A DNA stretch of 32,000 nucleotides from Crocosphaera subtropica ATCC 51142 (lineage in GTDB: Bacteria > Cyanobacteriota > Cyanobacteriia > Cyanobacteriales > Microcystaceae): contig NC_010539.1 in assembly GCF_000017845.1 (NCBI RefSeq), forward strand, positions 7,621 to 39,620. The letters run 5' to 3'. Made by a program: the position numbers and the translations under genes. Below the pieces are notes generated by a model. The model saw only the letters and a program-made list of their open reading frames with translations, was not told the DNA's origin and did not search any database. Shown here piece by piece: positions 7,089 through 30,708 of this stretch (the stretch's first letter is position 1; each line of letters starts with the position of its first letter).

Positions 7089-8249
7089 TCACGAAAGATA
7101 GGGGCGAATTTTTTCAACCGCTACTGTCAGAATGTTAGCCGCTTTCTCAATGTCTTCATCAGTGGTAAATTTGCCAACTCCAATGCGTAAGGCTCCTTCA
7201 ATCATCTCATCAGATAACTTTAATGCACGCAATACATGGGAAGGAGTAGCGACTCCCGATGAACAGGCTGCACCCGTAGAAATGGCTAATTGATGGCGAA
7301 CTCTGGCGATAATAGCACTATTAGGAATCCCTGGTAGAGAAATATGAAGATTACCTGCAAGGCGAGCGTTTATGTTTCCGTTAACCTGTAAATCAGGGAT
7401 TTGCGCTTGTAATAAGGTTTGTAAGCGATCTCGTTGCCTAGCAATCTGCTGTTCATCTTGCTCCATTTCTAATTGACGCAGACGACAAGCTTCCCCTAAT
7501 CCCACAATACCAGGGACATTGAGGGTTCCTGAACGCAGTCCTTTTTGATGGCCACCCCCAAAGATAATGGGTTCGAGAGGATAGCCTTTTCTCACAACTA
7601 ATGCGCCAACGCCCTTGGGTCCATAAAGTTTATGGGCAGAAATAGCCAGGTAAGTAATGCCCCAGTCGTTGAAATTGATAGGAATTTTACCCACAGCTTG
7701 GGAGGCATCACAAAGGAAAGGAATATCGTATTGGTGGGCGATCTGACCAATTTTTTCAATGGGGTAAATATTGCCGATCTCATTGTTGGCTGCCATAACA
7801 CAGAGAAGGGATAGTCCATCAGCACAGGTATTTTCCAGATTTTCTAAATCTAATCGTCCAAAACCATCAACTTTGAGGTAAATGAGTTCAGCTTGTCCTT
7901 TTTTGGCGAGCATTTGAATGGTGTCTAAAACGGCTTTATGTTCCACGGGAGAAACGGCGATGCGGGGGAGTTTAGGGGAATTGATGGCTTGAATATGACC
8001 AATAATGGCGAGATTAATGCTTTCCGTTGCACCAGAGGTGAAGATAATGTCTTTGGGGGAAGCCTTAATCAGTTGGGCGATTGCTTGACGGGCGTTGTAA
8101 ACTGCTTTTTCAGCTTCATCGCCGTAGGTGTGGTCAATGCTGCTGGCGTTACCGAAGGCTGTAGTTAAGTAATAAACCATTAATTCAGCCACTCTGGGGT
8201 CAACGGGGGTGGTTGAATGGTAGTCAAGGTAAATGGGTTGAATTGTCAT
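7089..8249 (-). CDS. NifS/IscS-type cysteine desulfurase (SspA/DndA-like role inferred from context)
   Basis: PLP lysine motif ISAHKLYGPKGVGAL, catalytic cysteine loop ISTGAACSSGV, and a class V aminotransferase N-terminus. Its ATG overlaps the stop of the upstream 1841-aa gene (ATGA, 8246-8249). Confidence 0.9.
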   Translation of the reverse strand: MTIQPIYLDYHSTTPVDPRVAELMVYYLTTAFGNASSIDHTYGDEAEKAVYNARQAIAQLIKASPKDIIFTSGATESINLAIIGHIQAINSPKLPRIAVSPVEHKAVLDTIQMLAKKGQAELIYLKVDGFGRLDLENLENTCADGLSLLCVMAANNEIGNIYPIEKIGQIAHQYDIPFLCDASQAVGKIPINFNDWGITYLAISAHKLYGPKGVGALVVRKGYPLEPIIFGGGHQKGLRSGTLNVPGIVGLGEACRLRQLEMEQDEQQIARQRDRLQTLLQAQIPDLQVNGNINARLAGNLHISLPGIPNSAIIARVRHQLAISTGAACSSGVATPSHVLRALKLSDEMIEGALRIGVGKFTTDEDIEKAANILTVAVEKIRPYLS

Positions 8250-11200
8250 AGATTTTGACTTAAATCCTGTTTAATTGCTTCAGCAACTAAGGAAAATTCT
8301 TCATTCGATAAGAATGGCACTTGAGTATATATTAAATCTGATTCCCCTGGTAGTCTTGCGGCTAAATGTCCTTTGCCTAGAAGACATTCTCCTCCTTTTT
8401 GTCCCAAGGAAATTTCGGAAGTTCCTACACTCTCAACTCTTAAGATTAAGCGATTGCCTAAGTTATCTCGAAGCTGCATGGGAAAGACATTATTATCGGG
8501 ACGTTGTGCTGCAAAGATTAGATGAATTCCGGCTGCTCTTGCTTTAACTCCTAAGCGTTGTACAGCAGAAGATACAGCATTTTTATATTCTTCTACTAAC
8601 ATCCAATCAGCAAATTCATCATGAACTAAAAGAAGAACAGGCAATTGTTTTTCAGCAGAAACTTTTTGATTATAAACCAATAAATTATTGACTTTTTGTT
8701 CTCTAAATAGTTGATAACGAGAATCCATTTCGCTAACAATTTTTTCAAATACTTCAATGCCTTGATATTGTTCAGTAATGATTCCTTCTGTTAAATGGGG
8801 TAAGTCTTCTAAGGGGAAATAATCGGTTCCTTGTTTAGCATCAATTAAGTAAATTTTTACCAATTCTGGAGAATTAGTAGCGCAGACATCTAAGAGAAGA
8901 TTTCTTAATAAGACTGATTTACCGCTTCCCGTTGCTCCGGCAATTAAAGTATGAGGGGCGTGCTGTTGAAGATGAGCAAATTCTTCTCCTAAATTAAGAT
9001 ATAGTAATTCTCCATCAATTTCTTTGACTCCAATGATGAAACTAAGATTAACTCCTGCTTTTAGATTAATTTCTCGTTGCTTCCATACTTGAGAAAGGGA
9101 AATAATTTCTCGTTGGGGACGAGCGATAGAAACGATAATTTCCCCAGGCGCACCTAAGATATTGATGACATTTAACCCATGAGTTGTTAATAGACTTGAA
9201 CGACGAGTTTCAATATCTTTAATATTAAGACGATCTGAGCCTTTAAAACGAATTAAAGCAGCATTAGGGGTTAATCTTTGTCCTAATACTTTAGCTTGTA
9301 AATCATAGCTAATTAGAGCTTTTCGTAGTGTTGAAACGGTTGTTTCTAACCATTTTTTTTCTTGTTGCTCATTGATTTTAGATTCAGTTTGTTGATTAAT
9401 CCATGTCGCTAAAGCAGGACTAGCCCAAGTTGTTTGTGTTATATTATTAACTTCTTTCTTTTCCTCATTTTTGTTCTGATTTGTATAATTTAATTGATTT
9501 AAGTGGTTACTTTGACTATTATAATCAGAAACTCCATTACTATTTTGTTGGGAATTAAAGTCGTTAATAGGATGGTTATCATTAGCAGCCTTATTAGGAG
9601 TTTTTAACGAATTTATGCTGTGACTAGGATGAATATTTTGAGGAGAAGTAACAAGGGATTGCTTTTGGTTTGAATTAATTGTTGTTAGATTCTCGTTTTG
9701 CAATGTCCTGTTGACTATTGTTTCAGTAGATTCTGTACTTAAACTTTCTATATATGCTATTTTTTCTGATGAAGCTGAATCATCAAGAATTGGTAATTCT
9801 AAAATAGGATTTACCCAAACCACTCTATCAGCTGGAAATCTTGGTTCTGAAACTGTCCAAGGTTGTTCATTTCCTAATTTTTCTCGAATAGATGCTAAGG
9901 GTTGTTGGTGATGAATAGCTAATACTAATTGACGAACAGTTTCTCGATTAAATATTTCTTGATAACATCTATCTACTTTAGCAATTGGTATTTGATCGTT
10001 ACTAACAGAGGTATCGCTAGGTCCAGAGATAAACACATGAGAATACCCTGATAAATCAAGGGGAATCGTGCCGTCTCTAACACCTTTTCGCCATTCTTCA
10101 ATGGAAATTGAATCAGTTGAATTAAATTCAATTCCATCTAATAATAAATCTCCTAAACGAGATAACCATAAATCTCGGTCAAGTCGCCCTGGACTTACAA
10201 ATAAAGCATTAGCCATTCGTTCAACGGTATCTCTTAATTGATGTTGAGAACTTTTACGGGCATCATTTAATCCATTTGCTTCAATATATTTAGCTTCAGA
10301 AATAATTATTTTAAGAACAGGTTGCTCATTTTTTATTTGAGGACTGATAGCTAAAATATCAGCAATTCTTCCTTCTTTTTGTCCTAACCAACTAGCATAG
10401 TCATCTAAAAAATACCAACCAACAGGATGTTCTTCTCCTAATTCAGATAATAATAAAGCTTTACTTAATACCACTCCCATTAATTCACTGGCATATTTAC
10501 CACTTTTTGCGGCTCGTAATATAATATCCCCTGAAATGTCTTTAGCTTGCTCAATAAACTGTTCTGCTAACGTTTTGATAGTGGTTTCATCTAAGTCTAA
10601 ATTTAAGCTTTCTAAACGGCGTTTGACAAGGACTTGTAACAGGTTCAAAGGAGCATTAGAAGATACTAAAAAATTACGGTCATCGCTGCGACTTTGTTGA
10701 TAGCGAATGACATTAACACCTTGATTGATTAATTGTCGTCTTTCGAGTAAATCATCATAATTAACGACCCATTCTCCTAGACGATGAACTTCTTTAAATA
10801 CTGTGCTAGTGTCTTCATCTTGGAAGGAAATCTGTCTTGCAGGAAGAAAATGCTGATTTTTGGCACAATCTAAATCTACCCGTTTTAAACTACTATAAAT
10901 GGCATCTAGATAAGTTTGTCCTACAGATGGTTGACTCGGACAGACTAAATAAACCGTCGATTTTAATTCGTCTTTAGCAGCAGGACGTTTTCTTGAGTAG
11001 CGTGTGGGAACGTGCTTGAGAATATCGGGGTTATCGTTAGATAAAGGGGTCGGTTGCCAAACTATTTCTGCTTGTCTGGAAATAATATCTTGAAGAAAGA
11101 CAATATCAGCGATTTTTCCGTTAGATGAAGATGATGTGTTCGACATGACGCTGATTCGCAGTCTGGCCATAAAATCGTGAGTCCCTTCACTAGCGACAAA

Positions 11201-13771
11201 AGCATCTGCATCGGTTTGAGAACTTTCTATGAGTTGCTGATACAAATCACTTAATTTGGGGGAATCTCGATGACATAAAATGACTTGACAACGAGCTTCA
11301 TTATAGTTGTCTTGTAATTCACTTAGTTTTGTAATAACTGTTTGGGGAAGTCTAGTGGAGTCACATTGATAAAGAATGATACTCAAATTTGTTTGTTCAT
11401 GGGGGAGTAATTCGAGGTATCGCTTCATTAAGTCTAGCAGTTTATTGGCTGCCTTTTTGGGGTCTTCATTGGTAGACTGTTGAGTTATATCTTTTATTGG
11501 TTGTTCAAGGAGACTGTAATCATTGACTGTATCAGACAGATAAAGTAATAAAGGTTCATTCCCTTTATAACCTAAACAAACTTCGGGATAATAAGGGTGA
11601 GTGAGTTCATTTCTTAAATCAGAGAAGAATAAACGGGAATCTCCAAAATTAACGTCTTCTGTTGAAAGAATATGTTTCAGTAATCCTGAAATTTGGCGGG
11701 CTTTAATGCTCAAAGAGGCTAATCTTAAGGGATGCCAAGGCGTAATAATAGCAGCAGGTTTTCCTCGTTTGACTTCCACACACCCTAAGCGTAAAATAGG
11801 TTCAATTAATTCCACTCGATTAGTATCACCCAGGGCATGATTAAGGAGAGTTTTAAGAAGTTCTTGATAGTCATCGCATTGGTGGATTAAAACAGGATGG
11901 GAAATCCCTTCTTGACTTAACCAACTATTCAGGGCTTTTGTATAAGTTTCTTTAAATTTTCCCCAAGCTTGTTTAATTATTTCTGCGGATTCTGAAGATA
12001 AGCGATTATCTTGAACTGCCTGTTTAAGAGCCGTAGGAAACAGTTTAGCTAAGTCTTGTTTTCGGTCATATTTACTGACTAAAGAGCCTCTATCTTGTCG
12101 ATAAGCAGCCATTAAAGTACCGACATCATCCAGAGAAATTCCTTGAAGACGACCTTTTTTGCTGACTAATTCCCGTGATACTTCAGAGATAAGAAAAGGA
12201 GAGGGGTTGGAATTAACTAACCGGTTTAAGTCATCATGAAGTTCCATTCCAATACTATTGGGATTTACCTTCCAAATTAATTGAATTTTGCTGATTAATT
12301 CTTGAGAAAAACAAGAACGAAGTTCTACATAAAATTTGATTTCACAAGCGGCTTTAGCTACAGAAACATTTTTTTTATATTTTTTCTTATTTTTCGTTTG
12401 TTCATCTTTTAATAATTCATCATATTTAAACAGCCAGTGAGTCTCCCAAGTAATTTCAGGATAGGTTAACTGTTCAATCCCTCTATACCTTGTACAAAAA
12501 TATAATCCCATGTCTGCATTGAGTTCTAACCATTTACTTTTACGGGAACTTTTTTGAGTTTTAATAATTAATTGAGTCGGATTTTCTTGAGAATCAGCTT
12601 GGTCAAAGAGTCGCTCAAAGGCTTGAACTAAACCCACTAAAAAGTCAGTGCATTCGATGGGTTGACCGTAGACAAATTTATCCCATTTGGTTTTGAGAGT
12701 ACGGTCATTTTCTAATTCAGACCGATGGTTATCATAAAATTCTTTGTCTTCTTCGTTAGCTTCTTTGGCTTTTCTTTTCTTTAATGTTTCTAGATAGTCT
12801 AATTCAGATTCGGTTAAACTATCAGGGTATTCATCTTCATAAAATTGTTGGGTTAAACTATATAAGTCGGTTTTTTTTGTTTTTAATCCACTAAAAATAG
12901 CGTGAATATTATCTATTTCCCATTCAAATTTAGTTAAAGCTTTCCCTTGTTCATTCCATTCCGGCGGACTTTTAATGAAGGCTTGAATAATAGAATGGGC
13001 TTGCTCAGGAATGTCTTCTTTAACCTTTTCAAAGGTCGATTGTAACTCACTTTCTTCAATGGGTTTACGGGTAGGGGTTTGTTTGAGTAACAGACAAGCC
13101 CGTTTAGAAACCGCCTGTTGATACTTTTGTTGCCACTTTTGGGCGTGTCCCCAAGTTTTTTGGGGTATGGCTTCAAAATACCCCGAATCACGGGGTAAAC
13201 GTAAGGCAGGTAAAGCCCATCCCAAGGCATTAATGATAGGAACACTTTCTGAGGCGATGCGCTCACGAGTATCCATGACATAGTTCGCAAATTGCTCTAA
13301 ACTGCATTCGCTGGCTGCAAGTAGTCCTTTTAACGCTTTGTTCCAGTATTTTAATTGTTCATCAGGTAAATCTAAGCCCTCACTGGCCACGTCTACCCAA
13401 ATTTCAATTTGTTCTTTTAAGAGTCCTGCACCCAAGGCAGAAATATCTTTTAAAGATTGTCCTTGGTCATCGTTAGTATTAGCTAATAGCAGACAAGGGC
13501 GGTCACAGGGAGCATGGCGTAGGTGAACGGTCTTTTCATCGGTTAAAATAGCTTCAGGAAGGTCATATCCTGCCACTAGAGTGCGAGGAATTTGGATTTT
13601 AATGTGGGGAGATAAGTCAGGGGTAGCGAGAATAGACTGACAAATGTTCGTGACTTGTTCTCCTGTTAAACGGTCTAAGATAAACCGAGCAACTCCGTCT
13701 GAATCCTCTGTATTTAGGGATTCTCTGAGAAATTTTGTCGCTACTTGGCCAATTAAATCAATAGAATCCAT
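8246..13771 (-). CDS. 1841-aa DptH/DndH-like protein: large soluble N-terminal region, PD-(D/E)xK-like motif, N/Q/S-rich linker, C-terminal FtsK/SpoIIIE-type ATPase
   Basis: FtsK-type Walker A LIAGATGSGKSVLLRNLLLD (nt ~8915-8940). Walker B LLLVHDEFADWM (~8605-8623). AAGIHLIFAAQRPDNNVFPMQLRDNLGNRLILRV is also present. D1138...E1159-A-K1161 (IADILAIS...IIISEAKYI) is the nuclease-like motif. The DptH assignment rests on size, position after two smaller genes and the PT-gene context, not on a measured alignment. Confidence 0.55.
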   Translation of the reverse strand: MDSIDLIGQVATKFLRESLNTEDSDGVARFILDRLTGEQVTNICQSILATPDLSPHIKIQIPRTLVAGYDLPEAILTDEKTVHLRHAPCDRPCLLLANTNDDQGQSLKDISALGAGLLKEQIEIWVDVASEGLDLPDEQLKYWNKALKGLLAASECSLEQFANYVMDTRERIASESVPIINALGWALPALRLPRDSGYFEAIPQKTWGHAQKWQQKYQQAVSKRACLLLKQTPTRKPIEESELQSTFEKVKEDIPEQAHSIIQAFIKSPPEWNEQGKALTKFEWEIDNIHAIFSGLKTKKTDLYSLTQQFYEDEYPDSLTESELDYLETLKKRKAKEANEEDKEFYDNHRSELENDRTLKTKWDKFVYGQPIECTDFLVGLVQAFERLFDQADSQENPTQLIIKTQKSSRKSKWLELNADMGLYFCTRYRGIEQLTYPEITWETHWLFKYDELLKDEQTKNKKKYKKNVSVAKAACEIKFYVELRSCFSQELISKIQLIWKVNPNSIGMELHDDLNRLVNSNPSPFLISEVSRELVSKKGRLQGISLDDVGTLMAAYRQDRGSLVSKYDRKQDLAKLFPTALKQAVQDNRLSSESAEIIKQAWGKFKETYTKALNSWLSQEGISHPVLIHQCDDYQELLKTLLNHALGDTNRVELIEPILRLGCVEVKRGKPAAIITPWHPLRLASLSIKARQISGLLKHILSTEDVNFGDSRLFFSDLRNELTHPYYPEVCLGYKGNEPLLLYLSDTVNDYSLLEQPIKDITQQSTNEDPKKAANKLLDLMKRYLELLPHEQTNLSIILYQCDSTRLPQTVITKLSELQDNYNEARCQVILCHRDSPKLSDLYQQLIESSQTDADAFVASEGTHDFMARLRISVMSNTSSSSNGKIADIVFLQDIISRQAEIVWQPTPLSNDNPDILKHVPTRYSRKRPAAKDELKSTVYLVCPSQPSVGQTYLDAIYSSLKRVDLDCAKNQHFLPARQISFQDEDTSTVFKEVHRLGEWVVNYDDLLERRQLINQGVNVIRYQQSRSDDRNFLVSSNAPLNLLQVLVKRRLESLNLDLDETTIKTLAEQFIEQAKDISGDIILRAAKSGKYASELMGVVLSKALLLSELGEEHPVGWYFLDDYASWLGQKEGRIADILAISPQIKNEQPVLKIIISEAKYIEANGLNDARKSSQHQLRDTVERMANALFVSPGRLDRDLWLSRLGDLLLDGIEFNSTDSISIEEWRKGVRDGTIPLDLSGYSHVFISGPSDTSVSNDQIPIAKVDRCYQEIFNRETVRQLVLAIHHQQPLASIREKLGNEQPWTVSEPRFPADRVVWVNPILELPILDDSASSEKIAYIESLSTESTETIVNRTLQNENLTTINSNQKQSLVTSPQNIHPSHSINSLKTPNKAANDNHPINDFNSQQNSNGVSDYNSQSNHLNQLNYTNQNKNEEKKEVNNITQTTWASPALATWINQQTESKINEQQEKKWLETTVSTLRKALISYDLQAKVLGQRLTPNAALIRFKGSDRLNIKDIETRRSSLLTTHGLNVINILGAPGEIIVSIARPQREIISLSQVWKQREINLKAGVNLSFIIGVKEIDGELLYLNLGEEFAHLQQHAPHTLIAGATGSGKSVLLRNLLLDVCATNSPELVKIYLIDAKQGTDYFPLEDLPHLTEGIITEQYQGIEVFEKIVSEMDSRYQLFREQKVNNLLVYNQKVSAEKQLPVLLLVHDEFADWMLVEEYKNAVSSAVQRLGVKARAAGIHLIFAAQRPDNNVFPMQLRDNLGNRLILRVESVGTSEISLGQKGGECLLGKGHLAARLPGESDLIYTQVPFLSNEEFSLVAEAIKQDLSQNL

Positions 13772-15457
13772 TTAAGTTTTCTCCACAGTGTAAGGATTAA
13801 GGACATAAGCACAAGCATCGGAAAGGCGTTTGAGTAACCCCAAGGATGCGAGGCGTTGTTCGAGACGTTCTGCATTATCAGAAAAAGCTTCAAGGTCTGC
13901 TTCTTTGCGCTGAATGATGTCAATGGCTTGTTTTTCACCAATTATGAAGCCATATTTTTGATAGAGTGTGTCTAAAAATTCTTGAAATTCCATCCGTTTT
14001 GGGACACAACAAAGTACCAAGGTTTTTAATAGGGAGTCGGTGGGTGCATATCGGGTGCGACGACTTCCCCTGCTCGAAGCGAGTCCAATTTCTTTTGTCC
14101 ACTTACTATGAAATTGACCAACGTGCTGTTTATGTCTAGTAATTGCTGAGAGACGAATTTCTTCTAATAGTTCATCGGGAGAATTACATTTGATTTCATC
14201 CTTTTTATAGTAAATTTCTTCTTTGATAATTTCTAAGGCATCTTCTATGGAGTTGGCAGAGTTAAGACAGGTTTGCCATTCTGGAAGTTGAGACAGTCTT
14301 TTTATATAGTGTTCAACCGCTCGTTTACTCAGGTTATTATTGTTTAAAAAGGCATCGGAAGCTAGGTCACGAATAATCGTTTTTTTGGGAGCAATTATTT
14401 CTAAAATTAATTGAGGTTTATCTTGACTATTCAAGGTGGTTGTTGAGTTCAATGAATCTTCATTGGTATTAGCTATAGTTTCTGACTTAAATAATAGATT
14501 TTGTTGACTATTTAAGAGACTTTCTGAGGAGAATCTAGGGTCATCTTCATTATTTAAGACGGCCTTAGCTCGTTTGAGTAGGTAAATGACTAAATGGACT
14601 CCTGTAATAGTAACTAAATGGGGTAAAGAATCATAGTCAGGAAGATGGCAATTAAATAGATTTATCCAATCATTAGCTAAGTTTTCAAATTCATCAAGAT
14701 GTTCATAGGGAAGATAGGGAGGACTGCTATCTTTTCCTCTTGGTTTTGTATCAGAATGATCATTAGGTTGAAGGGTAGCAACTAATTTATTCCATTTACT
14801 CGATTGTTTATGATCTATTATTCCTAATTTTTTTAGATGGGTTAAAATGTCTAATTTTAAAGAACTACGACTAATCATGAGATAAAGTAATTCTCCATTT
14901 CTGGCAAAAAAACGACGGTCATTGCTATAACTATTCTTACTAATTCTTAAATCCTCATAAAGACAATTAACCCCATAGGGAAAGACAAATTTAGAAGTCC
15001 AACGTTTATTACTATCACCTTCAATGGCATTAGATTGAAGAAATCTTACCACTTCTAGAAAGTCCCGAAACCTTATAAAGCGTTCTTGTAAATAACTAAA
15101 GTTAGGGGTGTTAATACCTCCACAATTATCATTCATTAAAGTTAACCATTGTTGCCAACGTTCTTCTTCTGTTGGATATTCTGCATAAACTGCTTCTAGA
15201 AAAGGATTATTAAACAGGATATTTCGTAAATAAAGACGACTATAAGAGGGATATTCTAATTGATGATTTTCAGGTTCAATAAAAGCTTGCTCTCTTTCTA
15301 ATTGTGTTTGAACAATGCCTAAAAATTCTAGAAGGGTTAACCAAGGGGTTTGTTCATCATAAAGACGATGACCCCAAATAGCTTCATCAACCCACATTTC
15401 AGTTTCTCTATGGGTTTTATTATGAGATGTAGGTTTAGGAAGACGTTTTATTATCAT
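13772..15457 (-). CDS. hypothetical protein, DptG-like by position
   Basis: 561-aa ORF. Its start overlaps the upstream stop (ATGA, 15454-15457), and its TAA abuts the downstream ATG (TAAATG, 13769-13774). I see no enzymatic motif. It has a conserved-looking N-terminus (EAIWGHRLYDEQTPWLTLLEFL) and an S/N-rich internal insert. Confidence 0.4.
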   Translation of the reverse strand: MIIKRLPKPTSHNKTHRETEMWVDEAIWGHRLYDEQTPWLTLLEFLGIVQTQLEREQAFIEPENHQLEYPSYSRLYLRNILFNNPFLEAVYAEYPTEEERWQQWLTLMNDNCGGINTPNFSYLQERFIRFRDFLEVVRFLQSNAIEGDSNKRWTSKFVFPYGVNCLYEDLRISKNSYSNDRRFFARNGELLYLMISRSSLKLDILTHLKKLGIIDHKQSSKWNKLVATLQPNDHSDTKPRGKDSSPPYLPYEHLDEFENLANDWINLFNCHLPDYDSLPHLVTITGVHLVIYLLKRAKAVLNNEDDPRFSSESLLNSQQNLLFKSETIANTNEDSLNSTTTLNSQDKPQLILEIIAPKKTIIRDLASDAFLNNNNLSKRAVEHYIKRLSQLPEWQTCLNSANSIEDALEIIKEEIYYKKDEIKCNSPDELLEEIRLSAITRHKQHVGQFHSKWTKEIGLASSRGSRRTRYAPTDSLLKTLVLCCVPKRMEFQEFLDTLYQKYGFIIGEKQAIDIIQRKEADLEAFSDNAERLEQRLASLGLLKRLSDACAYVLNPYTVEKT

Positions 15458-19939: not shown

Positions 19940-20052
19940 TACGTCCTAAATTCTCCTGGGCTATGATTTTAGCGTTCCCAATAATCTGATCCAAGTAACA
20001 TCTTTACCGAAAAATTAGTTGAAATGAAAGTATTTAGTAAAAACTTTTACAT

Positions 20053-20637: not shown

Positions 20638-20699
20638 TAATAATTAAGTTTGACTTTGCAACGAAATGCTATTAAGACTAAAAGTAAAAAGCTTAGCCC

Positions 20700-21269: not shown

Positions 21270-21321
21270 AATAGCCTTACATTGATGATTTTAAAAATAG
21301 GAACACTAAAAAATTAGAAGG

Positions 21322-21942: not shown

Positions 21943-21964
21943 AACTTGTCCTTACCCTCATTAA

Positions 21965-22492
21965 TTAGTCTGGAAAATAATTTTTAAGTGGATCGTAGTC
22001 AAAAGGAAGCTTATTCCAGTTCCAATAAAAGTCCCAATCACCTGGAAATTGTTCATCTTTGTAATGAATTCGACTAAAACCATCTCGACGCATCGTCCAA
22101 TCAGACCAAGTTGGCCCAGAAAACGAAACGAGGGCTACTTGTGGACAAAAGGGTGCAAGACGTTGAGCTATTTGTAGCATCACCCTTTCTCTTTCTCCAG
22201 AACCAAACTCTCCTGAAAGGGCAGAAAAACCAATTGAATAGTTACCCTTATAATCTCTAGCGACATCTACAGAGGTTTTCTCGAAATGTTCACGAGTCGG
22301 TTGATATCGTCTTATTTGATTAAAGACTTCAGATGTAATGGTACGACATTCATCGGAAAGCACTTCTATTGATAAATTTCTTTGAGCTAAAGAAGGAGAC
22401 ACATCAATGATAATTGGCAGGGTTATCAAAGCGGTACTTAGAAACTGTTTGAATGACAAAAATAGAAATTTATGTCTAAAGAAATTCTTCAT
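21965..22492 (-). CDS. exported hypothetical protein
   Basis: Hydrophobic N-terminus ...LSTALITLPIIIDVSPSLA|QR and a Trp-rich C-terminus (GDWDFYWNWNKLPFDY). No family recognised. Confidence 0.5.
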   Translation of the reverse strand: MKNFFRHKFLFLSFKQFLSTALITLPIIIDVSPSLAQRNLSIEVLSDECRTITSEVFNQIRRYQPTREHFEKTSVDVARDYKGNYSIGFSALSGEFGSGERERVMLQIAQRLAPFCPQVALVSFSGPTWSDWTMRRDGFSRIHYKDEQFPGDWDFYWNWNKLPFDYDPLKNYFPD

Positions 22493-22503
22493 TTTTTAAA
22501 TTC

Positions 22504-23211
22504 TTAAAGGTGGGTATCTATAACGATTTTGTGTCCGTAATCAACTCTAACTGTTAATTTCACTTGGGTTTTTGAATTCCAAAAATCAATATAACAACCA
22601 GACCATCCATTTCCACAAGTTAAACAGGGGGCATTACTCTCACAGATGTTTTGATTGCTTGCTGAAACAGCTGTTTCCTCTTGCGTGACTATCCTAAAAC
22701 CATTGGTATATAAAAGTTGTTTAGCTTGTGATAAATTCATTCCTGCCTTCAGGTAATTAGGATGTAAGTTATTGCAAAGATACCTATTAAGAAGCGTGCT
22801 ATGGTAAGGATTCAAAACATAATAATCAAACTGGTCAGGTGGTACATTTAGCTCATTAACAAATTCTCCTTCGTAATAAGTTTTAAAAGCCTTTGCCTGA
22901 ATAACTTTAACTTGTTTATTAGTAAAATTTTTGGACTGACAACTATCTATTCTTTTTCCTTTGACAGCTAAAGATTGTTGTTTTTTGTCTGAATCATAGA
23001 AAAAGTAAGCAAACTCCGAAGTAACAGAATTGTCAGTTTTTTGAAGACTATTTTTGTTGATTTCTATCCTCACATTAGGATGACCAACACTAATCCATTG
23101 AGACCCTAAATAACTATTCGTTTGAGCCGATAGCTCCATAGCACTAGAGCTAGACAGGACAGCAGCAATTGTTAACGACAGAAAAGAGCGCATTGGGTAA
23201 TTTCTCTCCAT
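22504..23211 (-). CDS. exported cysteine-containing hypothetical protein
   Basis: Signal peptide MRSFLSLTIAAVLSSSSAMELSA|QT (the start may be Met7). Cys-rich C-terminal region ICESNAPCLTCGNGWSGCY. Confidence 0.5.
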   Translation of the reverse strand: MERNYPMRSFLSLTIAAVLSSSSAMELSAQTNSYLGSQWISVGHPNVRIEINKNSLQKTDNSVTSEFAYFFYDSDKKQQSLAVKGKRIDSCQSKNFTNKQVKVIQAKAFKTYYEGEFVNELNVPPDQFDYYVLNPYHSTLLNRYLCNNLHPNYLKAGMNLSQAKQLLYTNGFRIVTQEETAVSASNQNICESNAPCLTCGNGWSGCYIDFWNSKTQVKLTVRVDYGHKIVIDTHL

Positions 23212-23314
23212 TGAGATGAGACTCAGGAAAAAGAGTGAATAGTTTCACTCAGTTATAAAGTTCCCAAAACAACACTAGAACTCTTCAAAATCTAGTCCAA
23301 TTCACTTAAATCGT

Positions 23315-26300
23315 TTAACGGGCCACCTTTTTAGACTTACCCTTTTGAGATGAGGCTTTCTCTTGAAGCAAACTTACTCCTTCAAGAGAATTAGTATTTA
23401 ACACCCTTTCTGTTAATTTCGCTAACACAGCTTGACGAATTTGCTCATTATCTGGCAGAATATCTAAAATTTGCTGAACGTATTTCTCTACTTTGTCTTC
23501 ATTACTATTATCTACCCAAACCATCCGATGGGTTTCCTCCCCATCAGGACGAGTAACCGTAATACGTCGTGCTTCAAACCCGTCCCCCTTAGCGGCCACT
23601 TCTTTCTGCAACGCCTCTAAATTCTTAAACCGTCTAGCAATATCCGATAACTTAACCTCAAACCCCGTGACATCCTTATCTGTCCAAGACTCAGGGGGTT
23701 TATCGGAGATCACCATCACCACTGCTTCTAACCATTCTGAATCAGATTTATCCTCATCAGTGGCAACTTGGACAAAACTGCGTAAATTCCGTTCTACACA
23801 CTGCCCTGCTAAATAACTCGCCCTTACTCGCAAATCTTCCCGCAGTTGCTTCTCCTGACTGCGTACCCCAAATGCTTCATAGAGTAACTTTTGACAGTCG
23901 GTTAACAGGGTTTCATAGGCCGTATTAATTTCCCGTAACGCCTGAACTAAGCGAGTCCGCAGGGTTTTAGCAATGGTTCCATCCTCTGCTTCTTCGGTTC
24001 CAATGGGGTCTAACCCACAAGCAACAGGAAGACTGGTAAAGATCAGTTCATCGGGTTCAACGGTTGTCTGTAATGCTTTGAGTACCCCTAATGCTTCTTT
24101 ACCGAGTCGTTGGGTTTGTTTCGTATATGAGGGAAGTTTTTTGACAAATTGATAGAGAGGAGTCACTACAGTTAGTAAGGTAGCATTTCGTAGTTTACCT
24201 GCTTTTTTCAGCTTAGGATTGCGTAAAATGGACTCTAATTCTTTAAATACCTCTGACCGTAACCCCACCACTTCAAAATATTTCACCGCAAAGCGAGACG
24301 GATCTTTAACCAATAATTCAAAGTGTTCTGCCCCTAAAATGGCAATAAAAGTCCCGTCTTGATATAACCCCACATCATCAATATGATTGAGAATGACGGC
24401 CGCAATTAAGACAGGAATCGCCCCCTGTTTGATGCCATAGGGCGGTTCTGCTAATTTTTGGTAGAGTTGATCTAAAGTGTGAGGCGTATCATAAGCATTC
24501 AAACAAAAATCTTCTACAGCTTCCCAAAACGAAAAAATTCCCGATGTAGTTTCAGGGGGATAAAAATCCCAGTCTTCTTCAATGATTTCAGATATATCAG
24601 GAGTATTAATTAGTTTCTCCTCAACGGTTACAGATATTTCAGAGGAGTCAACCCGTTCTTCATTCCCTGTGTCTGTCACTAATTTTTCTTCAGTTATCGC
24701 AACCGTTTGACCATGAATTCTCGTTTCTTCTAATAGAGAATAATACATACTGACTTCAGGGCCGTAACCAGATAACCCTAACCTGGGTTTTGATGACTGT
24801 TCTATCATGGCAGTTATTAATTCCCGTCTCGCTTTTGTACCTTGGGAAGTTAAGTCTCGACGGTTAATTAATTCATTCCAAAGAATCGGCGTTTTGTGAT
24901 AGACTTCATCGCAGACATGGGATAAGGTTGCATTGAAGTCGGCAATAGAATTAAGTTTCTTTTCCTCCCCTTGCACCCAACAACGGTTATGATTAAGGGC
25001 AAGGTCAAACGCTTGGGTTAATATTTCATCAAGCAATCTTTCTGCTTCAGTCACCCGATAACGCACTTCTCTTCTAGCGACTCCATCGCTTTGTAATTCA
25101 GATGCAGAGGTTTGAATTTGTTTTAAGGCAGCATATTCTCTGGTACGAATTCGTAGTAAATCTAATTTTGCCGCACAAATTAAAATGAAGGGTTTACCAT
25201 CCACTGTGGTAGCAGGAATTTGTGGCGGAATTTCCTCATCTAACCAATAGCCAATTAAGCCATCACTATCGGCATTTTCTAACTGTAATTGTTCTTGTAA
25301 AACTTTAAATTTATCATCTTCCCCTTTCGTTTCTAATCCCTTGCTATTGGAATCAAAATACAGTTTGCTGTCCAAATAACGTCGCTCAAAGTATCGTAAA
25401 GTACCTGTTTTATAACTATGACGCTGGGCAATTTGAGGATTGAAAGGACGCAGAGAAGAAAGTAAATTAACTAAAGATTCTCGTTGTTGGTCAATAAAAA
25501 CATTTAACTCACTATCTACATTAAAATCTGACCCTTGCCAAATTCTTAATTCATCTAATTGACGACGATGAGTAATAATATTTTTTTGTAGCAAGTCATC
25601 AATAATACTGCCCCAATACTCTAATTGTTCACTATCATGAGGACTATCACACATGGCTAAGGTGACTAATTCACGGGTTGCGCGGTTTGCCCCTGTTGTG
25701 GTAATTAAGTTTAAAATTCCAATTGCTTTTAAGACTCGTAAACTATCATTTTCTAAACGTTTCGCATCAGCAATTAAGTCTTGAATTTCCACCCATCGCT
25801 GCAAATTAGGACGGGACGCTAACCCCATTCCCGCAGCTTCAATAAAATAGTCATACACACGGTCAAGTTTTAGGGTGGGAAAAGGGTTAATATAATCTGT
25901 TTGAGATTTTTGTGTAGTTGGCTTTTCTGAGTTCTCTATTGTATTATTTTTTATGCTTGTTTCTTCCAGAAAAATCCTAAAGGAATAGGGTTCATTACTG
26001 GTAAGAAAGGTAAATAAAGATCGGTCATTTTGGGCGTAACGTTGACAAAGAGTAGGTAATGCTAAAGCAGTTACTGGATGAAGAGGATAAATATTTTCTA
26101 AAATGTCTAGGGTTATTTCTTCCCCTTGAATAGCAGTTTTTAAGCGACTAAACCATTCCGAAGCTGTATTATGGATAGCACATTCTAAGGGTTCTGCTTG
26201 AGTTTGATCAATCGCTTGTCCCATTAAGCGCATCATAGAAGATGCTGACTCAGTAAAGGGAATGTCTTCAAAGCGTCCTTGAATTTTAGCCCATTCGTTG

Positions 26301-27067
26301 CGTTGAACGGCGGCTAAACGTTGACTATATTCGGCAAAAGCTTGGTGTAAAATTCCTAATAAATAGACAGGGGTTGCAGTATTTTTGGGAAGTTCGGCCA
26401 GTTGTTGTAATAAGTATAAATCCTCTGCCCCTTGGTTATAAGCTGCATATTCAAGGGCTTTGCCCAATTCGTCAATGATTAAGAAAATCCCTGTTTTTGA
26501 GGCTGTGGCTAGTTCTTGGACGAGTTCAACAATTTTTCTACTATCTATTGCTTCTTCTGATGCGAGTTCAGTTTCTAAATCAGTCAATTTAGCAATAGCA
26601 GGAATTTTATTCTGTTGTGCAGGTTTCCAGTAAGTTTCTACACCTCGGCTTAAGGCACGAATAATAGTATGACTGATGGGTTCTCGTTGTCCTGTAGCGA
26701 CGGCACGAATATAGCCTTTTTCGGGAATAACTTGGCTTATAGTTTGATAGTCTAGGCTTTCCTTCCCCAAGGTATTTCTAGCAATTTCTAGGGCTTTTTT
26801 TCGTAGCTTACTTTTATTATCTGCTAATAAAGCGGTTAAATAATGAGCAAAAGCCGATTTTCCGGTTCCATAGACGCTGGTTAATGTCCAAGCTCGATTG
26901 CCTTCTGGTGCGGCAATTCCGCTTGAAATACGTCGTAGGGTTGTAATAGAACGATCCGTTAGGACGTAACCTTCTAAAGCTTCAAATTGCTCACTGTCCC
27001 GTTCTAAATTGACGGAACGGGAGTAACGACGCTTGAGAGTAATGTACTGGGAGAGGGGTTGGATCAT
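23315..27067 (-). CDS. sspC: 1250-aa P-loop ATPase, SspC-like
   Basis: Walker A TLTSVYGTGKSAFAHYL (nt ~26849-26875), Walker B GIFLIIDELGKAL (~26461-26490), and an N-terminal RSVNLERD...GYVLT motif. Size and architecture resemble the large DUF499/BrxC-type ATPases. It lies between the DUF4007 and PAPS-reductase-like genes. Confidence 0.55.
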   Translation of the reverse strand: MIQPLSQYITLKRRYSRSVNLERDSEQFEALEGYVLTDRSITTLRRISSGIAAPEGNRAWTLTSVYGTGKSAFAHYLTALLADNKSKLRKKALEIARNTLGKESLDYQTISQVIPEKGYIRAVATGQREPISHTIIRALSRGVETYWKPAQQNKIPAIAKLTDLETELASEEAIDSRKIVELVQELATASKTGIFLIIDELGKALEYAAYNQGAEDLYLLQQLAELPKNTATPVYLLGILHQAFAEYSQRLAAVQRNEWAKIQGRFEDIPFTESASSMMRLMGQAIDQTQAEPLECAIHNTASEWFSRLKTAIQGEEITLDILENIYPLHPVTALALPTLCQRYAQNDRSLFTFLTSNEPYSFRIFLEETSIKNNTIENSEKPTTQKSQTDYINPFPTLKLDRVYDYFIEAAGMGLASRPNLQRWVEIQDLIADAKRLENDSLRVLKAIGILNLITTTGANRATRELVTLAMCDSPHDSEQLEYWGSIIDDLLQKNIITHRRQLDELRIWQGSDFNVDSELNVFIDQQRESLVNLLSSLRPFNPQIAQRHSYKTGTLRYFERRYLDSKLYFDSNSKGLETKGEDDKFKVLQEQLQLENADSDGLIGYWLDEEIPPQIPATTVDGKPFILICAAKLDLLRIRTREYAALKQIQTSASELQSDGVARREVRYRVTEAERLLDEILTQAFDLALNHNRCWVQGEEKKLNSIADFNATLSHVCDEVYHKTPILWNELINRRDLTSQGTKARRELITAMIEQSSKPRLGLSGYGPEVSMYYSLLEETRIHGQTVAITEEKLVTDTGNEERVDSSEISVTVEEKLINTPDISEIIEEDWDFYPPETTSGIFSFWEAVEDFCLNAYDTPHTLDQLYQKLAEPPYGIKQGAIPVLIAAVILNHIDDVGLYQDGTFIAILGAEHFELLVKDPSRFAVKYFEVVGLRSEVFKELESILRNPKLKKAGKLRNATLLTVVTPLYQFVKKLPSYTKQTQRLGKEALGVLKALQTTVEPDELIFTSLPVACGLDPIGTEEAEDGTIAKTLRTRLVQALREINTAYETLLTDCQKLLYEAFGVRSQEKQLREDLRVRASYLAGQCVERNLRSFVQVATDEDKSDSEWLEAVVMVISDKPPESWTDKDVTGFEVKLSDIARRFKNLEALQKEVAAKGDGFEARRITVTRPDGEETHRMVWVDNSNEDKVEKYVQQILDILPDNEQIRQAVLAKLTERVLNTNSLEGVSLLQEKASSQKGKSKKVAR

Positions 27068-27094: not shown

Positions 27095-27310
27095 TTAGAG
27101 TGCTTCTCCAACAATGTGTAAAACTTCTTTATATAATTTTTCTTCTATCCAAAATCCTGTTTCTTGGATTAAGCTATCAAGTAAGGGTTTTACAGACTCA
27201 ATTAAGTTTCTCTGTTTGGCAGCTATTAAAATGCCTAAGACTCCAATAATTGATAGTCCTGATTGAGTGGCAATTTTTCTTCTTAATCTTTCATCAATAA
27301 TCATCGACAA
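27095..27310 (-). pseudogene. DUF3368 (PIN-like toxin) C-terminal fragment
   Basis: IIDERLRRKIATQSGLSIIGVLGILIAAKQRNLIESVKPLLDSLIQETGFWIEEKLYKEVL matches the C-terminal half of DUF3368 proteins. The N-terminal PIN-like half is missing. Confidence 0.6.
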
Positions 27311-27346
27311 TCATAACTTTATAAGGTTTGTAAATCTTGGTGTCAG

Positions 27347-27448
27347 TTAATTTTTTCTTTTTATGAGGATGATAGTGATTTCTAGTTTTAATTCACCTTC
27401 GGAAATTTTAGCAGTTTCTAAGAATTCATCGGGAATGGTTAAACTCAT
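27347..27448 (-). pseudogene. UPF0175-family antitoxin N-terminal fragment
   Basis: A 33-codon ORF below the track cutoff: MSLTIPDEFLETAKISEGELKLEITIILIKRKN*. It has the typical UPF0175 N-terminus but terminates before the HTH part. Confidence 0.5.
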
Positions 27449-27629
27449 AGGGTTGGTTGATGAAAAAAAGGGGTCACTATTCAATTTTAGATGAAATTTA
27501 GCTAAGAATAATTATCAAAAGTTATTTTTCTTGACTTCTTTTGAAAGTTTTGGTTCCGATTTGGGAATCCTAATACTATAGGCTTTCGAGCAATCTATCT
27601 TTCTTGGTTAACTTATTGAATGAAATAAC

Positions 27630-28214
27630 ATGAATAAACTAAGAAATTGTTTACTTCATTACTCAGGGTATATTATTGGCATCCATATTTTATTTATTAG
27701 TCCTGTTGAATCAGCCAATATATCGACTTCTTTAGACTTTAGTAGTGATATTCAAATCTCTTTATTAAGACAACAAAATACTAAAACAATTGAATCTCAA
27801 TTGGGTTGGAAAGGCTTTTTCAGTTTATATCGTATGTTTCCTGATAGACCAGACAATTATGATGAGGAATTTCCCTATAGTATAGTTTATTTAGAACCTA
27901 TAGGTAATAGTCTTAATATTTACAACTCATATGTAAAAAAACCTTTAGGACAATTGGCTGGATGTAATACCCATTATTGTGATAGAGCTAAAGCTTCATT
28001 AATAGGGCGTTTAAACTTCAAAGAGCAAGGTAATCAATGGATAGTTACTGAGGCTTCTGGACAAACGAGAATTCTCTTTGATAACGCTAGATGTGAAATA
28101 TACAGAAAATCTAAGACTTTAATATGTAAGGGATTTTATAAAGTAGAGAATTATCCTATGACTCCAGTTCCTGCAATTTACAAATTTGTCAATGATGGAA
28201 GCACCCCTTTTTAA
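27630..28214 (+). CDS. exported hypothetical protein (tandem paralogue 1)
   Basis: Starts MNKLRN... with a hydrophobic N-terminus. YLEPIGNSLNIYNSYVKKPLGQLAGCNTHYCDRAKASLIGRL aligns with the downstream gene, and four Cys are conserved. Confidence 0.6.
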   Translation: MNKLRNCLLHYSGYIIGIHILFISPVESANISTSLDFSSDIQISLLRQQNTKTIESQLGWKGFFSLYRMFPDRPDNYDEEFPYSIVYLEPIGNSLNIYNSYVKKPLGQLAGCNTHYCDRAKASLIGRLNFKEQGNQWIVTEASGQTRILFDNARCEIYRKSKTLICKGFYKVENYPMTPVPAIYKFVNDGSTPF

Positions 28215-28275: not shown

Positions 28276-28845
28276 ATGAACAAATTAAGATTTTTTTTGA
28301 TTGGCTACACTACTTTTTTTCTTGTAACTAATCTTCTTAGTAGTTACGAGGTCAAATCAGCCAATCTCTTAAGCAAATCGACTATTCGAGATGAGCAACC
28401 CACTCTATTAGTTCAAAATAAGACAACTCTTGAATCTATTAACTGGGGATTTTTTAGTTATTATATCAGATATCCTCATGATACTGAGTATCCTTATCCT
28501 AATGCCATTTACAAAAGTGTAGTTTATCTAGAGAGAAAAAATAATATAATCTACATCTATAATACTTATCTGCGCCGTCCGCTAGGTCAAGCAAATGGGT
28601 GTGGTGGACTTGGATGTGATATGGGCAAAGGTTCTCTCTTAGGTACTTTAAAATTACAACGCCGAGGAAATTTTTTAGTAGTTACTGAAGCTACTGAACA
28701 AGCGAAGATTCTTAATAACGTTAAGTGCCAAGTTCAAGGTGATGATACTGTTCCAGTTTTATCTTGCATTGGGACTTTTCAGTCTGAATTAAATCCTAAT
28801 GCTTTTCCTTTTACTGTTATCTACGAATTTGGTTCTGGTACTTAG
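28276..28845 (+). CDS. exported hypothetical protein (tandem paralogue 2)
   Basis: Starts MNKLRFFLIGYTTFFLVTNLL.... YLERKNNIIYIYNTYLRRPLGQANGCGGLGCDMGKGSLLGTL shows the same Cys spacing as the upstream gene. Confidence 0.6.
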   Translation: MNKLRFFLIGYTTFFLVTNLLSSYEVKSANLLSKSTIRDEQPTLLVQNKTTLESINWGFFSYYIRYPHDTEYPYPNAIYKSVVYLERKNNIIYIYNTYLRRPLGQANGCGGLGCDMGKGSLLGTLKLQRRGNFLVVTEATEQAKILNNVKCQVQGDDTVPVLSCIGTFQSELNPNAFPFTVIYEFGSGT

Positions 28846-28924: not shown

Positions 28925-29257
28925 TTAAATAAATTCAAGACGCTGATACATTGATTCGGTAGTATGAGAGAGATAAATTCGCCATAAAGCTTGTAAAATT
29001 TCTCCAATAGAACGACGACCTTGACGACAATAAATAATTCCTGCGTGTTCTACTTGTCGTTGATGAAGTCTCAAAAAATCGGCATCGTGGGTAAAAATTA
29101 TCCGCTTTTGAGTCAAAGCAAATGTGGTTTGTTGTTCATCAGATGCCCCAATTAAATTGACTTCTGCTGTGGTTGTTACATCAATATTCCGTCTTCTTAA
29201 TCCCTCAGCAATGGCATTTTCTACATTTTCATCCAAGTGAAATTTAATAAAAGTCAT
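28925..29257 (-). CDS. DUF5615-family PIN-like protein (putative toxin)
   Basis: FHLDENVENAIAEGLRRRNIDVTT...IIFTHDADFLRLH is typical of DUF5615 (Mut7-C-like) proteins. It lies downstream of a DUF433 gene. Confidence 0.7.
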   Translation of the reverse strand: MTFIKFHLDENVENAIAEGLRRRNIDVTTTAEVNLIGASDEQQTTFALTQKRIIFTHDADFLRLHQRQVEHAGIIYCRQGRRSIGEILQALWRIYLSHTTESMYQRLEFI

Positions 29258-29350: not shown

Positions 29351-29635
29351 CTAAGAAGAAAGTGATGAACGCATTTCAGTTTCTAAGCGGTCATCTTCTA
29401 AGATTGCTTTTCTAATTTCTTGAAAATTATCATAATAATAAGTTAACGCTGCATAAACATCCGCTAATGTAATAGTTGGATGTCGAGAAACAATTTCATC
29501 AGGGGAAAGTCCCATTTCTTCATACCAAATAACAATATCTTGTACTTTTATTCGATGACCAGCAATACGAGGTTTTCCCCCACAAACCCCTGGAGTCATA
29601 CAAATATGTTCGGAAATTACGGGTAGTTTCGACAT
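29351..29635 (-). CDS. DUF433-family protein (putative antitoxin)
   Basis: ICMTPGVCGGKPRIAGHRIKVQDIVIWYEEMGLSPDEIVSRHPTITLADVYAALTYYYDN is the DUF433 signature. Confidence 0.8.
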   Translation of the reverse strand: MSKLPVISEHICMTPGVCGGKPRIAGHRIKVQDIVIWYEEMGLSPDEIVSRHPTITLADVYAALTYYYDNFQEIRKAILEDDRLETEMRSSLSS

Positions 29636-29748: not shown

Positions 29749-29763
29749 ATCATTGGCAATGAT
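29749..29763. promoter_or_regulatory. 15-bp palindrome ATCATTG-g-CAATGAT, candidate operator
   Basis: Perfect 7-bp arms around one central nucleotide. It lies in the 164-nt gap between the sspB-like stop and the DUF433 start. Confidence 0.25.
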
Positions 29764-29799
29764 AATAATCATAAACTTCATGACCGAATTAATCACCTA

Positions 29800-30708
29800 T
29801 TACTGTCGATAATACTGCTCTAAAATTTCCCTTGCCAATTCCAAAGGCTCATCATTAAAAGAAAACTGAATTAATCCCGCCGTATCAGACAAAGCCAGCT
29901 TATTATTATGTCTAGCTACCCGTTCAATGGCATCACATAAGGCTTCTTCCGTTAACTTAAATACCAACCCTGGACTACCCACATCATACAACAAACGAGA
30001 GATAGCTAAGGTTTTCGTCCCATAACTGACTCGACTGGCATAATCTAAGCAAGCGGCCACAATAATCTCAGGGGGTAGAGTCGCTTTCGTCCCAATACGA
30101 AAGGTATAGCGTTTTGATTCTCCGGCAGTATGAATCAATCCCAGTTCACTAAAAGGACAGTCAATAGAATCTTCAATTAATCCCTTAGTCGCTTGTTGTT
30201 GAACGTACATCCGCAAAATGCAGTTGATGTCTTTCTTTAACGAAGATTCGGCGGTTGATTTTCCTAAATTTTCTTGATAACTGCGTAAGCCTTCGGTTAA
30301 ATCTTCGGCATAGAATTCCACAGCCCGAAATTCATTAAAAGTGTAGTACCAGGCCGCTGCCTCACAAGTGGGTTTTAGCAAATGCCAATGGAGTAACCAC
30401 AATGACGCTGGATTTTCTAGAAATGGATCATAACCGTCATCACTGAGAAGTTGTTGCCCAAAGTTTGATGGTTGATCATTTTCTAAAACTTTAAAGGCAT
30501 TACACCAGTAGCGGATGGCTTTTACCATGTTTTTTCCTACTCCTAAACGCACAGGAGCATAATCATCGGTAAAAATTCCTGAGTATTGAGTAGCGAGGTC
30601 AAAGCCTTTTTTTAGCCACCCATAACGAGGGTGGAAGGTTTCATGACGTGCGAAAACGGGATTGACTGGTGGTAAAGATTCAAATAGATTCGGTTGGGTT
30701 ATGGTCAT
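29800..30708 (-). CDS. sspB: DUF4007-family protein, SspB-like
   Basis: The N-terminal FARHETFHPRYGWLKKGFDL is the DUF4007 hallmark. It is 302 aa and on the same strand as the other Ssp-like genes. Confidence 0.7.
   Translation of the reverse strand: MTITQPNLFESLPPVNPVFARHETFHPRYGWLKKGFDLATQYSGIFTDDYAPVRLGVGKNMVKAIRYWCNAFKVLENDQPSNFGQQLLSDDGYDPFLENPASLWLLHWHLLKPTCEAAAWYYTFNEFRAVEFYAEDLTEGLRSYQENLGKSTAESSLKKDINCILRMYVQQQATKGLIEDSIDCPFSELGLIHTAGESKRYTFRIGTKATLPPEIIVAACLDYASRVSYGTKTLAISRLLYDVGSPGLVFKLTEEALCDAIERVARHNNKLALSDTAGLIQFSFNDEPLELAREILEQYYRQ

Follow-up and report, generated by a model that had tools for sequence, protein, structure and literature searches.

The window described here is a 32,000-nucleotide stretch of a 39,620-bp plasmid of Crocosphaera subtropica ATCC 51142 (formerly Cyanothece 51142). 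This plasmid carries an ssp locus, that is, a set of genes for single-strand phosphorothioate (PT) modification of DNA. The locus contains sspA, sspB, sspC and sspD, together with genes that we assign to the restriction module SspFGH. The accessions of the encoded proteins run from ACB54580 (SspA) to ACB54600 (SspB). The open reading frames (ORFs) of the window were listed and their products searched with Pfam, NCBIfam and PADLOC models. The comparison set comprised 80 cyanobacterial ssp loci from species representatives, each taken around an sspD homologue with 74-97% identity. Insertion history was followed in near relatives with >90% nucleotide identity in the ssp genes. These are L089, a Crocosphaera metagenome-assembled genome (MAG), L088, another MAG, L090, which is C. 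chwakensis CCY0110, and L007, which is strain SU3. A literature search found no paper citing the locus tags; its sole text match was an unrelated Burkholderia paper.

The modification genes

All four modification genes are on the minus strand. sspB (29800-30708) encodes a DUF4007 protein (Pfam DUF4007, 4.5e-106; PADLOC SspB, 1.3e-123), the predicted DNA-nicking and target-recognition subunit of the modification module. Residues 17-300 align with the solved SspB structures 6JUF/6LB9 (1.3e-58). sspC (23315-27067) encodes the BrxC-like P-loop ATPase of the module. No Pfam family matched this protein; the PADLOC SspC model matched with E = 0 and was covered from position 1 to 1104 of 1104, and the BrxC model matched at 1e-131. 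Its Walker A (GTGKS) and Walker B (LIIDE) motifs are at 67 and 196. sspD (19139-19939) encodes a PP-loop ATP pyrophosphatase/sulfurtransferase (Pfam PAPS_reduct, 1e-14; PADLOC SspD, 6e-115 over the full length) with SGGKDS at 13 and two CxxC motifs, CFFC at 168 and CLVC at 261. sspA (7089-8249), which overlaps the sspH stop by 4 bp, encodes a class-V aminotransferase/cysteine desulfurase (Pfam Aminotran_5, 2.4e-73; PADLOC SspA, 4e-141, and DndA, 1e-141). SAHK at 204 contains the PLP lysine and GAACSS at 326 the catalytic cysteine.

Profiles and motifs thus place the four proteins in the SspA, SspB, SspC and SspD families. An earlier reading of the letters alone (the sequence-only reading below) had proposed four same-strand genes of these types, and the proposal is borne out at the coordinates given above. 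It hung on the family membership of the 1250-aa and 266-aa proteins, which profile searches match to SspC and SspD. Its estimates of the junctions, 2.7, 3.4 and 10.9 kb, agree with the measured gaps of 2733 bp between sspB and sspC (B-C), 3376 bp between sspC and sspD (C-D) and 10890 bp between sspD and sspA (D-A). Six ORFs intervene at B-C, two of them on the opposite strand, and five at C-D. With these gaps the window departs from the published contiguous sspB-sspC-sspD operon. Contiguity is the typical arrangement and not a biochemical requirement. The adjacency of the ssp genes assumed in that reading holds for sspBCD but not for sspA, which in published systems is adjacent or elsewhere (PMC8092258).

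A restriction module between sspD and sspA

Four large genes lie between sspD and sspA, as the sequence-only reading had counted. It took this block for an unrelated cassette and did not recognise three of the genes, which we assign to sspF, sspG and sspH. All three are on the minus strand. sspF (15454-17361) encodes the Walker-A protein of the module (PADLOC SspF, 5e-233; GTAGDGKT at 84). Its true start is likely the ATG at 17322, giving 622 aa; the RefSeq product is this 622-aa form, and the start was also compared against L089. sspG (13772-15457; PADLOC SspG, 3.4e-187) starts within the sspF stop, with a 4-bp overlap. sspH (8246-13771; PADLOC SspH, E = 0) encodes a protein of 1841 aa whose C-terminal part carries an FtsK-type translocase domain. 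FtsK_SpoIIIE matches residues 1600-1758 (2.6e-37), FtsK structures match at 2.6e-28, and the Walker A motif GATGSGKS is at 1612. Spacing is -4, 0 and -4 bp for F-G, G-H and H-A.

The block therefore holds three co-oriented genes, with a Walker A motif in SspF and an FtsK-like C-terminus in the large SspH, adjoining the modification genes. It is predicted to be the cognate restriction module SspF-SspG-SspH plus one OLD-family ATPase/nuclease gene. The order sspD-sspFGH-sspA is also found in L011, L022, L042 and L043. NCBIfam models MAD7, MAD8 and MAD3 matched SspG, SspH and the OLD-family protein far below their cut-offs, and we read these matches as shared domains rather than as MADS membership.

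In published work, SspFGH acts with SspABCD as its PT-dependent restriction partner, damaging DNA that has no PT and proving toxic to cells that lack the mark (PMC8092258). The same paper describes roles for SspA, SspB and SspD and finds SspE compatible with SspFGH. The SspABCD-SspFGH system of Vibrio anguillarum FF-93 (Wang et al., mBio 2021, PMC8092258) has the same SspB, C, D, F, G and H families as the window, a Walker A motif in SspF, an FtsK-like C-terminus in SspH, a NifS/IscS-type cysteine desulfurase, and restriction genes that adjoin the modification genes. FF-93 has a compact sspBCD operon and a separate IscS, whereas in the window sspB, sspC and sspD are split by 2.7 and 3.4 kb of foreign genes. 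Only the window has sspFGH between sspD and sspA and an OLD-family gene between sspD and sspF. Its locus is on a 39.6-kb cyanobacterial plasmid and is known here from genes alone. The modification module is also that of SspABCD-SspE (Xiong et al., Nat Microbiol 2020; cited in PMC8092258), but the plasmid has no SspE, and the slot after sspD holds the OLD-family gene instead. In L089 and in 15 other cyanobacterial loci, SspE immediately follows sspD. The locus is a stretched variant of a known system and not a new system.

An OLD-family gene after sspD

The fourth gene of the block (17384-19108, minus strand) occupies the sspD-sspF slot and encodes a 574-aa OLD-family ATP-dependent nuclease-like protein, with an ABC ATPase and a Toprim-like C-terminal half. 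The N-terminal ABC-type ATPase is recognised by AAA_15 (8e-29), AAA_21 (2.5e-23) and SMC_N (1.6e-15) and by the Walker A and B motifs GSNNSGKS and ILLLDE. In the C-terminal half, T354-E355-D356 and H409/D411/D413 are invariant across 36 homologues. The AlphaFold2 (AF2) model has a pLDDT of 89 and shows an alpha/beta C-terminal half at high confidence. The best fold match in the PDB is the OLD nuclease 6P74 (E 4e-13 over 530 columns).

OLD-ABC/Toprim backup effectors embedded in BREX and BREX-related loci have been described (NAR 2026, PMC12839542), and SspB, SspC and SspD are homologous to BREX type 4 components (PMC12839542). Our literature search found the OLD association described for BREX and BREX-related systems and none for Ssp. 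Like the BREX effectors and the class 1 OLD of Thermus scotoductus (6P74), the window protein has an ABC-type ATPase N-half and an invariant E and DxD in its C-half, and like the former its gene is embedded in a modification-based defence operon. The whole-chain TM to 6P74 is only 0.34-0.37, and no Pfam Toprim model matched the protein.

The closest homologues (57-63% identity) were examined in eight genomic contexts, a small and non-random sample, and six of these are PT-linked. In four the gene directly follows sspD, with three different partner effector sets: opposite-strand BrxL/PglZ/BrxC; SspE with a helicase and a HATPase protein; or these last two without SspE. One homologue directly precedes an SspA-like desulfurase and one follows a DndB-domain protein. 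The two remaining contexts are unrelated to PT, one being prophage-like and the other adjoining smpB. These contexts provide a lead that this group of OLD proteins may be associated with PT systems. In L091 and L092, which have an OLD homologue and the opposite-strand BrxL/PglZ/BrxC genes, a Fic-domain gene (383 aa) is found between sspC and sspD, one more case of insertion at that junction.

The gene could instead be a stand-alone defence gene lodged in a defence island and uncoupled from PT and SspFGH, a reading to which we give somewhat less than an even chance. Class 1 OLD nucleases are known to occur as single genes. The gene is absent from all 80 representative cyanobacterial loci, even by tblastn at 1e-3, and sspD and sspF are only 0-4 bp apart in five relatives. 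Its GC content at third codon positions (GC3), 0.14, is the lowest in the locus, and the prophage-like and smpB contexts also fit an independent gene. Against this reading stand the six PT-linked contexts, the embedded effectors of the related BREX systems (PMC12839542) and the tight packing of the gene, with 30 bp to sspD and 61 bp to sspF. Moreover, it sits in the slot that holds SspE in L089 and L034. The gene is probably an additional or backup effector. A broader proposal is tentative and, in our view, rather doubtful. It holds that this OLD clade would be an undescribed PT-coupled Ssp effector that replaces or backs up SspE, its activity being controlled by whether DNA carries PT or by failure of the primary SspFGH or SspE response. 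Cyanobacterial ssp loci would then be modular platforms of sspBCD, stackable effector slots and sspA, with at least one further uncharacterised module, made of a second DUF4007 protein and proteins of ~155 aa and ~1800 aa.

Insertions at the sspB-sspC and sspC-sspD junctions

The B-C junction contains a DUF433 antitoxin-like gene (29351-29635, minus strand; Pfam DUF433, 3.5e-19) and a DUF5615/PIN-like toxin gene (28925-29257, minus strand; DUF5615, 2.4e-19; PIN_10, 1.4e-5). They are 93 bp apart on the same strand, as expected for a type II toxin-antitoxin (TA) pair, which they are predicted to form. Next to them are two plus-strand orphan genes with signal-peptide-like starts, 27630-28214 (194 aa) and 28276-28845 (189 aa), without Pfam match. 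Their products are paralogous (39% identical, E 6e-33), and a word-indexed search of 5.8 billion proteins with the 189-aa protein (cce_5251) returned only itself. The sequence-only reading had reported TA genes and opposite-strand exported-protein genes here, and both are present. It did not note a second, degraded TA pair of the UPF0175/DUF3368 type at 27095-27484 (minus strand), of which only 45-aa and 71-aa remnants are left (DUF3368, 8.6e-19 on the 71-aa remnant).

This arrangement was compared with L088. There, sspB is followed by an intact UPF0175/DUF3368 pair (81 aa, 163 aa) and then by sspC. Relative to L088, the window has lost ~430 bp at this pair. The DUF433 gene is not at the corresponding position in L088. 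The 2.3-kb insert formed by the DUF433/DUF5615 pair and the two opposite-strand orphans lies exactly inside the 18-bp spacer after sspB.

The C-D junction is occupied by a cassette of five minus-strand genes with signal-peptide-like starts (20053-23211; 235, 175, 206, 189 and 194 aa), in agreement with the five exported-protein genes of the sequence-only reading. No Pfam family reaches its cut-off with any of the five products. The cassette is absent from L089, L007 and L088. In L089, sspC is followed after 108 bp by sspD, then by an SspE-like GmrSD protein gene and sspF. L007 has a Tox-REase-2 gene pair in the gap. A ~75-nt leader of sspD (19940-20016, minus strand) is conserved whatever is inserted further upstream: blastn identity with L089 and L007 runs to 20014-20016 and then stops, as also seen when the sequences were compared by eye. 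sspC ends in a lysine-rich tail (23315-23396), and these final ~20-27 codons vary among the window, L007, L088 and L089, while the remainder of the gene is >90% identical among them. The turnover boundary at the C-D junction therefore extends into the 3' end of the gene.

The B-C and C-D splits are thus insertions, made up of TA modules and cassettes of orphan periplasmic-protein genes, whose positions coincide exactly with intergenic spacers. The idea that the locus is interleaved with unrelated cassettes stands for these two junctions, judged against close relatives, and fails for the D-A block.

In C. chwakensis (L090) the cassette is found at 98.4% nucleotide identity, with the five ORFs intact in both strains. 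We considered whether it is independently mobile and in a non-ssp context there; blastn and tblastn showed a 3' remnant of sspC directly upstream, that is, the same context in a decayed state. An inverted duplication flanking sspC, formed by the 194/189-aa pairs and able to flip the gene, was also rejected: there is no long inverted repeat and the pairs are unrelated in sequence.

All seven small ORFs of the two junctions begin with a hydrophobic signal-like segment. They include two paralogue pairs (194b/189b and 189a/206) and are otherwise mutually unrelated. Their GC3 is 0.17-0.28, compared with 0.31-0.42 for sspA-D. These near-orphans are confined to Crocosphaera, and none of the seven occurs in the other 80 cyanobacterial ssp loci. 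The 194-aa protein of the cassette has a confident all-beta AF2 model that gave no significant PDB match in a fold search. It shows a sub-threshold similarity to Pfam PliI (lysozyme inhibitor), and a full HMMER scan returned 76 weak relatives, the sole annotated domain being that of one peptidoglycan-binding fusion.

We regard the exported-protein genes as unrelated periplasmic-protein cargo without a link to Ssp. They could conceivably be functional defence accessories, for instance envelope proteins co-regulated with Ssp that block phage entry or lysis. The same-strand position of the cassette between sspC and sspD, its tight spacing of 11-113 bp, the ORFs intact in two strains, the PliI similarity and the peptidoglycan-binding fusion would fit such a role. 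We nevertheless consider it very improbable. Cassette homologues occur in 0/80 other ssp loci and are missing from three close relatives, other cyanobacteria have quite different fillers at the C-D junction, and the proteins are restricted to one genus. The fold search was uninformative, and the substitutions relative to L090 (17 synonymous, 26 non-synonymous) are too few to judge selection.

Layout of cyanobacterial ssp loci

In the comparison set, the sspB-sspC gap has a median of 31 bp and a maximum of 230 bp (n=61). The 2.7-kb split of the window, seen in 0/61 relatives, is exceptional and peculiar to its lineage. By contrast with this junction, C-D is a recurrent insertion site: the sspC-sspD gap (n=69) has a median of 245 bp and exceeds 600 bp in 29 loci and 1 kb in 24. 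Elsewhere the gap is filled by small genes of a selfish or defensive kind: a PIN TA toxin gene beside a small ORF, Uma2, Tox-REase-2, HTH-HNH and a DUF4351 protein gene. The sspD-sspF gap (n=9) has a median of 4 bp, with one case at 2.36 kb. Finally, the sspD-sspA gap (n=40) has a median of 5.35 kb and is above 1 kb in 39 loci. Stackable effector modules lie within this stretch. The known PT effectors among them are SspE (15 loci), SspFGH (9), HTH-HNH proteins (14) and a PbeA-like helicase with a HATPase_c_3 protein, with or without a PLD-like protein (19). An order of sspBCD, then variable effectors, then sspA is therefore the regular cyanobacterial design.

At least eight cyanobacterial loci have a further module downstream of sspD, composed of three proteins, a second DUF4007/SspB-like one of ~285 aa and two others of ~155 aa and ~1800-1840 aa (L082:10957-17708; also L035, L014, L054, L080, L081 and L086). 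The largest of these has no Pfam or PADLOC match. This module is a candidate new PT-linked effector. In six loci, a 227-aa and a ~780-aa protein are encoded directly after sspD (L013:10824-13843; L021, L053, L056, L065); the larger one has a weak, below cut-off match to a DndB domain (1.8e-6).

The only compact sspB-sspC-sspD-sspA arrangement was seen in L075, a Candidatus Obscuribacter MAG, with a D-A gap of 33 bp and sspFGH upstream and divergent. It shows an alternative ssp layout in a non-photosynthetic relative of cyanobacteria.

A megablast search of PLSDB returned only pCHL69-2 of Cyanobacterium sp. HL-69 (CP024914.1, our L087), a second plasmid-borne ssp locus. There, TA pairs follow sspD and precede iscS-2/sspA, and the annotation of sspC as three consecutive ORFs hints at possible pseudogenisation. 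This locus resembles that of the window in being plasmid-borne, in having TA pairs between ssp genes and in the distance of sspA (iscS-2) from sspD. It differs by its effector set, its three-ORF sspC and the lack of exported-protein cassettes.

Intact system or decaying remnant

All seven ssp genes are full length when compared with the PADLOC models (E 6e-115 to 0, full model coverage), their motifs are kept and no reading frame is broken by an insertion. Pairwise dN/dS values against orthologues point to purifying selection and are 0.05 for sspB (versus L088), 0.15-0.18 for sspC, 0.05-0.06 for sspD, 0.10 for sspA, 0.15-0.28 for sspF and sspG and 0.15 for sspH. From sspC to sspA, all genes are co-oriented with gaps of -4 to 113 bp, so that read-through transcription or internal promoters could serve them. 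As judged from sequence, the locus is most likely one functional plasmid-borne SspABCD-SspFGH PT defence system, intact but stretched by insertions. We put the probability of this reading at about 0.78.

If so, its action would follow from family membership and the literature. SspA would take sulfur from cysteine, and SspD would activate and transfer it. SspB would nick the DNA and recognise the target, with SspC supplying ATPase activity. The expected product would be PT in one strand of host and plasmid DNA; an example of such a mark in Ssp systems is 5'-CpsCA-3'. SspF, SspG and SspH, the last with its FtsK-type motor, would treat PT as the sign of self and damage incoming DNA that has no modification. 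The OLD-family ATPase/nuclease between sspD and sspF would be an extra effector in the slot held by SspE in close relatives. Because SspFGH is toxic without PT (PMC8092258), an intact restriction module would keep the scattered modification genes under selection.

Several observations weigh against an intact system. Two opposite-strand genes intervene between sspB and sspC and so separate sspB transcriptionally. A hairpin followed by a T-run, resembling a terminator, is found just after the sspC stop (23233-23250, minus strand); it is a lead only, from a scan that was not above chance. The scans for promoters (43 versus 52.8 expected) and terminators (8 versus 10.3) are at or below shuffled expectation and so do not define the transcription units. 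Low dN/dS is a record of the time since divergence and need not mean that the genes function today, and our literature search returned neither PT measurements nor expression experiments for these ATCC 51142 genes. Furthermore, two sister lineages with the same backbone have decayed, which means that erosion occurs in this clade. L088 is without sspD and has a 5'-truncated sspF. In L090, 80 codons remain of the sspC 3' end, and an IS1 element occupies the expected place of sspD.

These points raise the possibility that the locus of the window is itself a decaying remnant, in which insertions uncoupled the modification genes transcriptionally and both PT synthesis and restriction were lost. The near-complete loss in L090 and the losses in L088, the broken sspB-sspC transcript, the hairpin after sspC, the UPF0175/DUF3368 pair that is already a pseudogene and the three-ORF sspC of pCHL69-2 would agree with it. 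We consider it unlikely in view of the seven full-length ORFs with complete model coverage and intact motifs and of dN/dS values of 0.05-0.28. In addition, no insertion lies outside a spacer, and the sspD leader has been kept. Since SspFGH is toxic in the absence of PT (PMC8092258), loss of modification alone should also be counter-selected. The sequence-only reading had asked whether this is a working, expanded operon or one being broken up. The evidence favours an intact system with intergenic insertions, on a backbone that does decay in sister lineages.

The best promoter-like match of the scanned region, again from a scan not above chance overall, is at 29702-29673, just upstream of the DUF433 gene. 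Six consecutive runs of the Logan assemblies (L001-L006; SRR26036484-89) contain contigs of 2-11 kb identical to the window, each of which crosses from sspD into both the 194-aa cassette gene and the OLD gene. Should these runs be RNA-seq libraries, co-transcription across the sspD junctions would be indicated; the literature search found no paper citing them.

Neighbouring genes on the plasmid

A GIY-YIG/T5orf172 protein gene (3721-4440) followed by a gene for a RecD-like SF1 helicase (4604-6094; PADLOC candidate PDC-M16A, 1e-42) may form a second defence pair on the same plasmid. Plasmid maintenance and recombination genes occupy most of 662-3584: a RuvC-like gene (733-1380), a gene for a PRiA4_ORF3-domain protein (1364-2677) and a tyrosine recombinase gene (2712-3584), preceded by a 34-nt tandem repeat at 662-729. 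The ~1.3 kb upstream of sspB (30709-32000) contain no ORF >60 aa and no Rfam match, and the Rfam scan of the whole window returned zero RNA families. On the corresponding side, L088 has a ParA-like gene, a 118-aa ORF and a DUF4112 gene. In the window, the DUF4112 gene adjoins sspA, so the backbone has been rearranged between the two.

Implications

A complete Ssp system with this layout may be missed or split by defence finders that require gene adjacency, and a cognate restriction module can be mistaken for foreign cargo. The related loci form a natural series of operon insertion and erosion, from uninterrupted through TA-only and heavily interleaved but intact to decayed. The OLD clade and the other modules described above are candidate PT-linked effectors. 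They bear on the question of why most sspBCD loci, 83.9% (PMC8092258), have no known restriction partner. ATCC 51142 is a model diazotrophic cyanobacterium, and plasmid-borne PT restriction, if active, could affect its genetic tractability.

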